From Escherichia coli (GTDB lineage Bacteria > Pseudomonadota > Gammaproteobacteria > Enterobacterales > Enterobacteriaceae), in NCBI RefSeq assembly GCF_003334815.1, contig NZ_QOWO01000020.1: DNA of 64,000 bases; one strand, written 5' to 3'. The notes beneath the pieces were generated by a model, which searched no databases, was not told the origin of the DNA, and saw nothing but the letters and a program-made list of their open reading frames with translations. Shown here one piece after another: positions 3,059 to 19,657 of this stretch. The translations under genes and the position numbers were made by a program. Positions within the stretch are counted from its first letter, which is position 1, and the number at the start of each line of letters is the position of its first letter.

Positions 3059-4240
3059 TTAGCGAATTTCTTTGTCTCTCCCGGCGCAAAGTCCGAAAAT
3101 CGCCATCAGTAGTGAAAGTATGGCAACACCCATAAGTGGTACAGACCAGTTACCGTTAGCATCGTGTATTTTACCCATCAGCGGCGGCCCACAGGCTGCC
3201 AACAAATACCCGACGGATTGTGCCATCCCCGAGAGTGCCGCCGCCTGATGCGCAGAACTAGCCCGCAGACCAATGAACGTCAACCCCAGTATCATTGTTG
3301 CGCCGGAACCAAAACCGAAAAGCAGAGTCCAGGTGATCGCGTGCGCTGGCATAAAGCAGAGCCCAACCGCGCCCACTGCGCACATCAAGGCAACGAACGC
3401 TGCAATACCACGCTGATCTTTCACATGATGTAAGAAAAGTGGGATCAGCAAACCGGGTGCTGCTGTGGCTAGTTGCAGCAAACCATGCAGTGAACCCGCC
3501 TGTGCTTCGCTATAGCCGTGACTGATGAGGATCGCCGGAAGCCAGCCAATAATCACGTAATAGACCAGTGAGTTGATCCCAAGAAACAATGTGACCTGCC
3601 AGGCAAGCGGCGAACGCCAGATACCCCGAGTATGTAAGGCGCGCGAGGTACTCAAATTTGCATGTTGTTGACTTCGCCACTGTGGCAGCCATAAAAAAAG
3701 AGCCAGCAGAGGAAAACACATCAGCATGAGCAACGCGCCTTGCCAGCCAAAACCGTTCAAAGCCAGCGGCACGACCATAGCCGATCCCAGTGCCGCTGCA
3801 GCTCCCATTGTCAGGGAATATGCGCCGGTAAGTCTGGCGACGGAATGAGGGAAATCGCGTTTAATTAATCCTGGCAGTAAGACATTGCCTAATGCAATCC
3901 CACCGCCAATGACCGCTGTACCGCCAAATAATAAGTAAGGCGAAGGGAGAGAGCGAATTGCGATACCAGCACAGATCAAAAGTAACGCGGCAAACAGGCT
4001 ACGTTCCATACCAAAACGTCGCGCTACCGGGGCAGCCAAAGGTGAGATTAGCGCAAAGGCCAATAATGGCAGGGTGGTCAATAAGCCGGTTTGCGCTGTC
4101 GTCAGCGAGTAAGCGGAACGAATCGTATCCAGTAACGGTGCTGCGCCGGTAAAGGTGACGCGTAATGTTGTGGCAATCATCAGAATGCCAGCGATAAGGA
4201 CAATCCTGTTTTTGCCGCTTAATGAAGTTGAACAGGTCAT
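3059..4240 (-). CDS. yeaN: MFS transporter (2-nitroimidazole exporter NimT)
   Basis: ORF track 393 aa, multiple hydrophobic spans. Confidence 0.85.
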   Translation of the reverse strand: MTCSTSLSGKNRIVLIAGILMIATTLRVTFTGAAPLLDTIRSAYSLTTAQTGLLTTLPLLAFALISPLAAPVARRFGMERSLFAALLLICAGIAIRSLPSPYLLFGGTAVIGGGIALGNVLLPGLIKRDFPHSVARLTGAYSLTMGAAAALGSAMVVPLALNGFGWQGALLMLMCFPLLALFLWLPQWRSQQHANLSTSRALHTRGIWRSPLAWQVTLFLGINSLVYYVIIGWLPAILISHGYSEAQAGSLHGLLQLATAAPGLLIPLFLHHVKDQRGIAAFVALMCAVGAVGLCFMPAHAITWTLLFGFGSGATMILGLTFIGLRASSAHQAAALSGMAQSVGYLLAACGPPLMGKIHDANGNWSVPLMGVAILSLLMAIFGLCAGRDKEIR

Positions 4241-4336
4241 ATGCTTCTCATTGTTACAAACGAGGCTGTACCTTACCGTTTTTATTGTTATGTTGAATCA
4301 AGCTAAAATGACAAATTATCGCTAAGTTCGGACAAA

Positions 4337-15131: not shown

Positions 15132-15178
15132 TGTTGTGTGCCGGATGCATTGCACCCGGCACACAACATTAACGTAAA

Positions 15179-17897: not shown

Positions 17898-17938
17898 AAA
17901 AACGATTCAGCAACTTATTCCACAGGAGCGGAAAAATT

Positions 17939-18211
17939 ATGAATCTTGATGACATTATCAACAGCATGATGCCTGAGGTATACCAGCGTTTGTCGACCGC
18001 CGTTGAACTGGGGAAATGGCCTGATGGCGTTGCGTTGACCGAGGAACAAAAAGAGAACTGCCTGCAACTGGTGATGCTGTGGCAAGCCCGCCATAATATC
18101 GAAGCACAGCATATGACAATTGACACAAATGGTCAGATGGTCATGAAGAGCAAACAGCAGTTAAAAGAAGATTTTGGTATCTCAGCAAAGCCTATTGCCA
18201 TGTTTAAGTAA
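17939..18211 (+). CDS. yeaC: DUF1315 protein YeaC, 90 aa
   Basis: ORF 17894..18211 trimmed to internal Met (MNLDDIINSMM...). Confidence 0.8.
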   Translation: MNLDDIINSMMPEVYQRLSTAVELGKWPDGVALTEEQKENCLQLVMLWQARHNIEAQHMTIDTNGQMVMKSKQQLKEDFGISAKPIAMFK

Positions 18212-18469
18212 GTGGTTCATCCCCTTTTTGCCTCGGCTATGAAGGGGATAGCCAACAATGACCCCACGACTCATCTCAATTATCTCGCCATGACCTGGCT
18301 AAGTCCCAGTCCGATCTCTTGCCGTCCCGTTCACACCTGAATGACTTCTCCTGAACTTAAGTCTCAGACCTATTTGGCCGGTAATCCCTCTCGAATTTGC
18401 TCTTTTTGCGCCCCGCCTTCCATCAACCTGTAACAGACCCAGCCATTTTCTGCGTAATTGTGATCTGAG

Positions 18470-18503
18470 TTGTAAAACGCAGATTATTATCTGTGTTTTA
18501 CAG
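18470..18503. promoter_or_regulatory. 14-bp imperfect inverted repeat, candidate operator upstream of ydjL
   Basis: TTGTAAAACGCAGA-ttatta-TCTGTGTTTTACAG, about 80 bp upstream of the ydjL ATG. Confidence 0.3.
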
Positions 18504-18580
18504 ATTTAATGTTGACCTCAAAAATCATGTGGGTAAGTATGATGGCCATCTAAGCAAAACTAAACACAGAGGATGACGCA

Positions 18581-19657
18581 ATGAAAGCACTGGCTCGGTT
18601 TGGCAAGGCCTTTGGCGGCTACAAGATGATTGATGTCCCACAACCCATGTGTGGCCCGGAAGATGTAGTGATTGAAATTAAAGCCGCGGCAATCTGCGGC
18701 GCAGACATGAAGCACTACAATGTCGATAGCGGTTCTGATGAGTTTAACTCTATCCGCGGCCATGAGTTCGCAGGTTGTATTGCGCAGGTTGGTGAAAAAG
18801 TCAAAGACTGGAAAGTGGGGCAACGCGTCGTATCGGATAACAGCGGTCACGTTTGCGGTGTTTGTCCGGCCTGTGAACAAGGTGATTTTCTGTGTTGTAC
18901 AGAAAAAGTAAACCTTGGTCTGGATAATAATACCTGGGGCGGTGGTTTTTCCAAATATTGTCTGGTTCCTGGTGAAATTCTCAAAATTCATCGTCATGCG
19001 TTGTGGGAAATCCCTGATGGTGTTGATTATGAGGACGCAGCCGTACTTGACCCTATCTGTAATGCCTACAAATCCATCGCGCAGCAATCGAAATTCCTTC
19101 CTGGTCAGGATGTGGTCGTCATCGGCACTGGCCCACTCGGGCTGTTCTCCGTACAAATGGCGCGAATTATGGGGGCGGTAAATATCGTCGTCGTTGGTCT
19201 GCAAGAAGATGTGGCGGTCCGCTTCCCGGTTGCAAAAGAACTGGGTGCGACGGCAGTAGTAAATGGTTCTACCGAAGATGTGGTGGCGCGCTGCCAGCAA
19301 ATTTGTGGCAAAGACAATCTGGGACTGGTGATTGAATGCTCCGGTGCCAATATCGCACTGAAACAAGCCATCGAAATGCTCCGCCCGAACGGGGAAGTGG
19401 TACGCGTTGGAATGGGCTTCAAACCTCTTGATTTCTCGATTAATGACATTACCGCCTGGAACAAAAGCATCATTGGGCATATGGCCTATGACTCCACCTC
19501 ATGGCGTAACGCTATCAGGCTATTAGCCAGCGGCGCTATCAAAGTCAAACCGATGATCACGCATCGTATCGGCCTGTCGCAATGGCGCGAAGGGTTTGAT
19601 GCGATGGTCGATAAAACCGCAATCAAAGTGATCATGACTTACGACTTTGATGAATAA
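18581..19657 (+). CDS. ydjL: Zn-dependent medium-chain dehydrogenase YdjL
   Basis: ORF track 358 aa. Confidence 0.9.
   Translation: MKALARFGKAFGGYKMIDVPQPMCGPEDVVIEIKAAAICGADMKHYNVDSGSDEFNSIRGHEFAGCIAQVGEKVKDWKVGQRVVSDNSGHVCGVCPACEQGDFLCCTEKVNLGLDNNTWGGGFSKYCLVPGEILKIHRHALWEIPDGVDYEDAAVLDPICNAYKSIAQQSKFLPGQDVVVIGTGPLGLFSVQMARIMGAVNIVVVGLQEDVAVRFPVAKELGATAVVNGSTEDVVARCQQICGKDNLGLVIECSGANIALKQAIEMLRPNGEVVRVGMGFKPLDFSINDITAWNKSIIGHMAYDSTSWRNAIRLLASGAIKVKPMITHRIGLSQWREGFDAMVDKTAIKVIMTYDFDE

Follow-up and report, generated by a model that had tools for sequence, protein, structure and literature searches.

The glp regulon of Escherichia coli is among the closest described counterparts of the element considered here, an inverted repeat at positions 18470–18503, in front of ydjL, within a 64,000-nucleotide stretch of the E. 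coli contig NZ_QOWO01000020.1 (assembly GCF_003334815.1; hereafter the window). GlpR belongs to the same DeoR/GlpR family as YdjF, the regulator encoded in the ydj cluster. The operators of GlpR, like the boxes in front of ydjL, are quasi-palindromes of about 20 bp arranged in tandem, about two helical turns apart, over a promoter, and both systems act jointly with CRP on a catabolic operon. From the work of the Larson laboratory on glpD and glpTQ-glpACB, glpD is said to have additional GlpR operators inside the structural gene. A second relative is DeoR, with its operators deoO1, deoO2 and deoOE at deoCABD, a DeoR-family repressor such as YdjF may be. The deo operators are palindromic, lie hundreds of bp apart and cooperate by DNA looping, and control is shared with CRP and CytR. 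The latter offers a likeness in mechanism only, being a LacI-family protein that binds cooperatively with CRP; in CytR anti-activation, as proposed for ydjL, the site of the regulator adjoins and overlaps the CRP site and the region from CRP to the -35, where occupancy would block activation by CRP.

Several differences set ydjL apart from these systems. Its box reads AATCTGTG...CACAGATT, as opposed to the TGTTCGATAACGAACA type generally known for GlpR. The two strongest boxes in E. coli lie upstream of the -35 hexamer, whereas those of GlpR cover the -10 and the +1. Each deo operator is a single 16-bp palindrome, located at one of two promoters or at an upstream site, with no phased triple array, and looping is at ydjL, unlike at deo, suggested by an intragenic box 399 bp away. 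The element is thus of an ordinary kind, cluster-encoded DeoR-family operators beside a CRP site, for an uncharacterised regulator, and has not yet been described for the ydj cluster. Added interest comes from its footprint across phyla, a constrained intragenic box and the concerted evolution of its two arms.

The inverted repeat is most likely a DNA element composed of two adjacent, oppositely oriented copies of a quasi-palindromic box of about 21 bp. The boxes upstream of ydjL are, we think, probably an array of YdjF operators that would repress a weak, CRP-dependent promoter; from the comparisons below we infer the binding protein, the repression, the transcription start site and the looping. 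The initial annotation had placed a 14-bp imperfect palindrome about 80 bp upstream of ydjL, in a yeaC–ydjL spacer of 370 bp. The spacer (18212–18580) measures 369 bp, and the annotated arms, TTGTAAAACGCAGA (18470–18483) and TCTGTGTTTTACAG (18490–18503), match at 12 of 14 positions. In the best register, the arms are TGTAAAACGCAGAT (18471–18484) and ATCTGTGTTTTACA (18489–18502), complementary at 13 of 14 positions around a 4-nt loop (18485–18488), with a single G:T mismatch (18479/18494). The ydjL ATG (18581) follows the end of the right arm at 77 nt and the repeat's centre at 94 nt. Only two loci in the window, this one and a terminator at 15133–15167, have 14-nt arms with at most one mismatch and a loop of 3–8 nt, and no repeat of that quality appeared in 20 first-order Markov simulations of the window. 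A dispersed repeat, such as a repetitive extragenic palindrome or bacterial interspersed mosaic element (REP/BIME) or a miniature inverted-repeat transposable element (MITE), is ruled out by copy number: the repeat is present at exactly one place per genome in the 3973–4331 E. coli genomes having the region, where 4331 comes from a distant-mode search and the 75-bp megablast undercounts divergent alleles.

For comparison, YdjL orthologues were gathered from 58 loci, and the enteric ones were aligned over 25 taxa, the set to which statements on enteric conservation refer. Similarity upstream of ydjL begins abruptly at 18456 and reaches the ATG, which defines a block of about 125 bp (18456–18580); the remaining spacer is Escherichia-specific, and even there only two short blocks align. 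Within the conserved block, the invariant or nearly invariant columns are TGTGA-C (18459–18465), the repeat region, TTGAC (18512–18516, with the TTGA invariant and the C nearly so) and A-A-n-T-A-T (18535–18540). No other part of the spacer shows conservation between enteric genera, and the repeat sits within it immediately ahead of the TTGAC. The block is also kept in Citrobacter, Klebsiella and Enterobacillus, whose ydjL is preceded by a divergent gene (GH18 or malic enzyme), so the element is part of the ydjL promoter, not of the 3' region of yeaC.

These columns point to a weak sigma-70 promoter on the plus strand, in which a predicted -35 hexamer TTGACC (18512–18517) and a weak predicted -10 hexamer AAGTAT (18535–18540) are separated by 17 nt and transcription would start at about 18547–18548. 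Two other candidates were rejected: a scan-predicted promoter over the right arm (TTTACA-17 nt-AAAAAT), neither hexamer of which is conserved in other genera, and a minus-strand match (TCAACA-18 nt-GATAAT), which uses the non-conserved loop. In a memory-circuit screen, a ydjL promoter fragment showed no activity in culture and turned on in the mouse gut, where it was among the most consistent gut-induced triggers (PMC6561318).

The box has the core TCTGTG-AAA-CACAGA and the half-site AATCTGYG. Box 2, the core box (AAATCTGTAAAACACAGATAA, 18487–18507, minus strand; 15-bp core 18490–18504), comprises the right arm with its flanks, is centred at about -50 and is the best-conserved element of the block, being kept throughout the 25 enteric taxa. 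By itself it forms a perfect palindrome, TCTGTGTTTCACAGA (AAATCTGTGTTTCACAGATTT), in Serratia and Enterobacillus, where the left arm is not conserved. Box 1, a weaker copy (TGAGTTGTAAAACGCAGATTA, 18466–18486, plus strand; core 18469–18483), comprises the left arm, is centred 21 bp upstream of box 2 and has a good half-site only in its inner half, CGCAGATTA (TAATCTGCG on the minus strand); it is conserved as TTGTGAAATGCAGAT in most enterics, Serratia and Enterobacillus excepted. The palindrome arises because boxes 1 and 2 face each other head to head. In Citrobacter and Klebsiella the arms form Watson-Crick pairs at only 10 of 14 positions, the near-perfect palindrome being confined to Escherichia. 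Thus, of the initial proposal that the 34-bp palindrome may be an operator, the operator part is supported, and the 34-bp unit gives way to the box of about 21 bp as the likely functional unit. Box 3, a weak box or half-site (18507–18527, plus strand), lies 20 bp downstream of box 2 and overlaps the -35 and the promoter spacer; box 2 ends 5 bp ahead of the predicted, conserved TTGACC that box 3 overlaps. Given the 21- and 20-bp phasing, the three boxes would lie on the same helix face.

The same box is found in other phyla. Upstream of the ydjL orthologue in a GC-rich Atopobiaceae genome, TCTTGCAAACACAGA, TCTGTGAAACACAGA and TCTTGTAAACAGAAA follow one another at 20/21-bp spacing, and the third sits on the -35 of a TTGTAA...TATAGT promoter; a Eubacteriaceae locus has an equivalent arrangement, again with the third box overlapping the -35. 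Unsupervised Gibbs sampling of 21 diverse upstream regions converged on box 2 in its three best runs. Two reciprocal matrices, one built from enteric sites only and the other from non-enteric (Gram-positive and actinobacterial) sites only, were used to avoid circularity. With the non-enteric matrix, box 2 is the top match of the 64-kb window (27.8 bits, the next being 17.3), and phased matches begin at 18466, 18487 and 18507. With the enteric matrix, the three Atopobiaceae boxes are the top three matches of that 21-kb locus, and 7 of 15 non-enteric loci have their locus-wide top match no more than 300 bp ahead of ydjL (binomial P = 2e-6). Box 1 scores 7.8 bits with the Gram-positive matrix (p = 2e-4) and 12.0 bits with the enteric one, where it ranks fifth in 128 kb; box 3 scores 6.6 bits in E. 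coli (p = 4e-4) and 9.9 bits in Klebsiella.

The cluster that carries these boxes encodes its own candidate regulator. YdjF (25059–25817) scores as a DeoR/GlpR-family protein; the nearest models are GlpR, AgaR, FucR and SrlR, all below cut-off, and the best NCBIfam model is that of GlpR. Both non-enteric clusters examined in full run ydjL, an epimerase-like gene, ydjK, J, I, H and G, followed by a gene for a 252-aa DeoR-family protein, and such a gene has the same cluster position in Klebsiella, Citrobacter, Enterobacillus, Atopobiaceae and Eubacteriaceae. A cognate DeoR-family gene therefore lies in the cluster and accompanies the box across taxa. Moreover, E. coli YdjF and the two non-enteric orthologues, from three phyla in all, share the helix-turn-helix segment VTEETIRRDLEKLE without a difference. 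The conserved block, the cross-phylum box and the identical segment together lend comparative support to the earlier suggestion that the palindrome is a plausible YdjF operator.

YdjL of E. coli shares 76–85% protein identity with its orthologues in Clostridia, Coriobacteriia, Enterococcus, Anaerococcus and Megamonas, and the whole cluster is syntenic (loci L023–L046, L063 and L068), which points to horizontal spread among gut bacteria. In several Gram-positive clusters, including both examined in full, ydjL and ydjK are separated by an additional gene resembling ribulose-phosphate 3-epimerase, and in the two full clusters an SDF-family transporter replaces ydjE. The occurrence of the same box and an identical helix-turn-helix segment from Enterobacteriaceae to Coriobacteriia and Clostridia indicates that the cluster is passed among gut bacteria together with its own regulation.

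Further boxes lie beyond the promoter. The motif TCTGYGWWW occurs nine times in 128 kb of strand, and six of the nine fall in ydjL or ydjF control regions: three precede ydjL, a fourth lies within its leader and the other two precede ydjF. An intragenic box (18886–18906, minus strand; TTTTCTGTGTTGTACAGAAAA on the plus strand) spans ydjL codons 102–109, and is the second-best match in 128 kb with the non-enteric matrix (17.3 bits). Its codons, GAT TTT CTG TGT TGT ACA GAA AAA, are nearly frozen synonymously in the enteric taxa, whereas adjacent codons vary freely; none of the 349 8-codon windows of ydjL has a lower synonymous codon entropy than the one that starts at 18884 (0.21, against a mean of 1.03). 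The distance from box 2 is 399 bp in E. coli, Klebsiella and Enterobacillus alike, and the box is absent from the Gram-positive ydjL orthologues. These properties fit an auxiliary operator that may serve in looping. In the ydjL leader, an exact 9-mer copy of the box-2 half-site (TCTGTGTTT, 18562–18570, minus strand) abuts the Shine-Dalgarno sequence, and its conservation may reflect merely the ribosome-binding site.

A box-like element, AAATCTGTGATTCAAACAGGT (24967–24987, plus strand; 13.8 bits, fifth in 128 kb), stops 5 nt short of the -35 of a constitutive ydjF promoter known from the literature, which consists of TTGAAA (24992–24997), a 17-nt spacer and GATAAT (25015–25020) (PMC3946193). 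It is preceded by TCTGTGA and CTGTGA repeats (24948–24965) and is conserved in Citrobacter and Klebsiella. The ydjG–ydjF spacer as a whole (24944–24985, 25031–25050) has three CTGTGA repeats at 9–13-bp intervals. This spacer was reported as a CRP target by systematic evolution of ligands by exponential enrichment (SELEX; PMC3105977), and a weak signal in chromatin immunoprecipitation on microarrays led to the proposal that it contains a degenerate LexA site, CCCTGTATCTTTTTACATCA (ChIP-chip; PMC3542263).

CRP itself probably binds beside the repeat at ydjL, not at the repeat. A CRP-like site (18456–18477) has an invariant left half, TGTGATCT (18459–18466), and a poor right half, TTGTA; the site is centred on 18466.5, which places it at about -81 relative to the predicted start, as in class I promoters, and part of it is shared with box 1. 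It matches 7 of 10 core positions (18459–18474), which is not significant alone, and a window-wide search for the CRP pattern showed no enrichment (215 matches, 221 expected). What supports the half-site is thus its invariance together with published experiments, not statistics: Crp shifts the ydjLKJIHG promoter in an electrophoretic mobility shift assay, and expression is Crp-dependent in vivo (PMC8085971).

These elements suggest how the promoter may be controlled. The array spans from about -81 to -21 relative to the predicted start, with box 3 on the -35 and box 1 over the CRP half-site. When no inducer is present, a YdjF oligomer would fill the array and occlude both the -35 and the surface needed by CRP and the alpha subunit of RNA polymerase, keeping ydjLKJIHG off; the intragenic box 399 bp downstream may be bridged to it by looping. 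An intermediate of the pathway would release YdjF, upon which cAMP-CRP would activate the promoter. The related box beside the ydjF promoter suggests autoregulation.

Within Escherichia, the two arms of the repeat changed in concert. In the Escherichia ancestor, the left arm underwent 18474 G>A and 18478 T>C, each of which made a Watson-Crick pair with the invariant right arm. Among the E. coli alleles, of which those at 18473, 18479 and 18500 come from loci L075, L081 and L085, strain 2012C-4431 has 18500 A>G alone, and CT02 has this change together with its partner 18473 T>C (T:A to C:G) and with 18479 G>A, resulting in a perfect 14/14 palindrome, an allele found in only two genomes. WL297 has 18479 G>A, and pair-breaking alleles, 18478 C>A and 18501 C>A, also exist. 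Pair-making events are two among six arm substitutions, far above chance. Copying of the left arm from the right is the pattern of hairpin-templated, or quasi-palindrome, mutation. We take the arm symmetry to be a mutational overlay on functional sites, and the alleles of 2012C-4431 and CT02 look like hairpin-templated quasi-palindrome correction in natural populations; selection for a hairpin is a possible cause of the concerted changes. The variation in E. coli falls in the box centres, and the half-site cores ATCTG and CAGAT are invariant, which fits recognition by a protein. The loop varies too: in a 1-kb comparison with MG1655, whose numbering runs opposite to the window (window position = 1879913 minus MG1655 coordinate), the sole difference is 18485, T in the window and C in MG1655. 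The T allele, present in only 164 of about 4331 genomes, brings the inner half-site of box 1 nearer to AATCTG.

Several facts weigh against repression by a YdjF array. The predicted -10 matches the consensus at 3 of 6 positions, below the scan threshold, as would be expected of an activator-dependent promoter; the proximal promoter and its start are predictions, and no mapped start was found for it. The E. coli version of box 3 is a weak match (6.6 bits), the half-sites of the box at the ydjF promoter are 2 bp wider apart than in box 2, and AT-rich Firmicutes intergenic DNA inflates the matches of an AT-rich matrix. The concerted or compensatory arm changes (18474, 18478, 18479 and the pair 18473/18500) are not predicted by a model of two purely independent sites. 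A literature search found no paper describing a YdjF site, and a 2016 list by Ishihama still counts YdjF as uncharacterised. With their centres near -71 and -50, boxes 1 and 2 sit ahead of the -35, where activators typically bind as well, and the weak -10 indicates a promoter in need of help. YdjF might then bind the boxes as an activator, or as a co-activator with CRP, and its similarity to the model of the fucose regulator as well as to repressor models is in keeping with this. FucR, a DeoR-family member, is an activator; most characterised members of the DeoR/GlpR family, however, are repressors. Moreover, in each of three phyla a third box extends over the -35, the intragenic box fits repression by looping, and the ydjL promoter is off in culture despite the constitutive ydjF promoter. 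We thus regard activation by YdjF as unlikely. That the repeat is an operator for a protein other than YdjF, for example CRP or another global regulator, appears very unlikely. CRP does bind the promoter fragment, the boxes contain TGTGA-like strings, and the CRP SELEX and weak LexA ChIP signals were reported at ydjF. Yet the TGTG and CACA of the box are 3 bp apart, not the 6 bp of TGTGA-N6-TCACA, so the repeat itself was rejected as a CRP site; the 22-mer centred on it is likewise a poor CRP match. In addition, the box occurs in Gram-positive and actinobacterial clusters that share YdjF and not the enteric global regulators. Resemblances by eye to Fur and GalR sites were dropped, as the loop, which looks like half a Fur box, and the left arm vary across taxa, and the spacing of a LexA-type CTGT-N8-ACAG does not fit.

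The remaining explanations concern the palindrome as such. It could act as a hairpin in plus-strand RNA, either as a terminator or insulator against read-through into ydjL, whether from msrB-yeaC or from a start within yeaC, or as a structured element of a long ydjL leader. The fold is indeed stable (-19.3 kcal/mol, z = -5.1 against shuffles), a consensus scan labels the repeat terminator-like, and the palindrome is most perfect in Escherichia, the genus in which yeaC reads towards ydjL. The changes in Escherichia and in CT02 restore or keep pairing, and most mismatches in other genera are G-U on the plus strand. The repeat would also be transcribed from that start inside yeaC, from which Adams et al. 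cloned the ydjL "5' UTR" (untranslated region; primer GCACAGCATATGACAATTGAC, matching window 18104), and would lie in the resulting leader of about 477 nt. The stem, however, is AU-rich (4 G-C pairs of 15), and the minimum-energy fold pairs the T-run (AUUUA) into it, so that AAUGUUGA follows as a poor tail. The MG1655 Term-seq tables of Adams et al., which cover the growth conditions used there, contain no 3' end at 18614xx (window about 18414–18513). An intrinsic terminator was therefore rejected: the repeat shares with that class a stable hairpin, some T residues and the scan flag, and differs in having neither a G+C-rich stem with a direct U tract nor a mapped 3' end, and in being conserved where nothing is transcribed into it from a divergent upstream gene. 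Covariation in the 25 taxa is no better than in shuffles (one compensatory cell, 0.115 against 0.116), and Rfam gave no match for 17900–18700 on either strand at E up to 1. Serratia and Enterobacillus lose the left arm and keep box 2, and pair-breaking alleles occur in E. coli. The same study found a strong region of Rho-dependent termination inside ydjL, about 145 nt from its start (window 18725). RNA therefore crosses the repeat, and RNA that enters ydjL from upstream is cut off by Rho under laboratory conditions. The conserved proximal promoter argues that the start inside yeaC is not the regulated one. On balance, a role for the repeat as RNA seems to us quite unlikely. Most improbable is a palindrome with no function of its own, whose symmetry is kept by template-switch mutation. 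The left arm was repeatedly changed to complement the invariant right arm (at 18474, 18478 and 18479, and at 18473 after 18500), the intermediate 18500 allele survives in 2012C-4431 and the perfect allele is rare. Such mutation explains the symmetry, but not the conservation of box 2 across orders and phyla, and it leaves the fixed position by the -35 and the phased third box unexplained.

Returning to the operator array, a fuller picture can be offered tentatively, as one that may well prove too elaborate: a multi-operator switch moving horizontally with its regulator, in which three phased boxes and a selected intragenic box (399 bp, or 38 helical turns, away) would combine looped repression with CRP anti-activation, and in which the arms would be homogenised by hairpin-templated mutation, so that the operator pair evolves in concert within Escherichia. 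YdjF and ydjLKJIHG belong to the poorly characterised fraction of E. coli genes, and the enzymes of the cluster act on long-chain sugar acids of unknown natural source (PMC9602453). A defined YdjF box would allow a direct binding test, a search for the inducer, delimitation of the regulon and the design of gut-responsive promoter variants.

The genes around the repeat lie in the order gapA (minus strand), msrB, yeaC (17939–18211), ydjL (18581–19657), ydjK, J, I, H, G, ydjF and ydjE. The yeaC–ydjL spacer is carried by 4334 of 5426 E. coli genomes, and the cluster is thus variably present; about 20% of complete E. coli genomes are without the spacer. In E. coli KTa005 (locus L062), an IS1 lies 131 bp past yeaC, and a deletion has removed the ydj cluster as far as a truncated major facilitator superfamily (MFS) gene. 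In Klebsiella and Citrobacter (L071 and L073; 7979–9704), two minus-strand genes, one HNH endonuclease-like and one GH18 chitinase-like, separate yeaC from ydjL, and a homology search against both genera detected no remnant of this region in the 369-bp spacer of Escherichia. Another block of the spacer, 18405–18434 (TTTTGCGyyCCGCCTTCCATCAAyCTGTAAC), is common to E. coli, Escherichia sp. E1V33 and E. whittamii, where the surrounding spacer has diverged, and has no counterpart in Citrobacter or Klebsiella.

The spacer begins with a stem-loop (18213–18254, plus strand) at the 3' end of the yeaC mRNA, which the initial annotation had correctly noted right after the yeaC stop. Its core arms, ATCCCCTT (18219–18226) and AAGGGGAT (18242–18249), are complementary at all eight positions with 15 nt between them, and the extended stem folds with -22.2 kcal/mol (z = -3.4). 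The hairpin is without a U tract. Term-seq data (Adams et al.) place the primary yeaC 3' end, found in more than one data set, at MG1655 1861655 (window 18258), 4 nt past the extended stem. In other Escherichia species the arms are conserved and the loop is entirely different, as expected of a structural element.

Two further hairpins in the window coincide with published 3' ends. The only other repeat of a quality similar to that at ydjL, GTTGTGTGCCGGATGCATTGCACCCGGCACACAAC (15133–15167), lies in the yeaD–yeaE gap and matches a 3' end assigned to yeaE/yeaD by Term-seq. The DNA ahead of ydjE showed no box. Downstream of ydjF, a hairpin (GCGGCAA...TTGCCGC; 25868–25915) is followed by TTTTT and matches the published Term-seq 3' end at MG1655 1854008; ydjE is therefore probably a transcription unit separate from ydjF.

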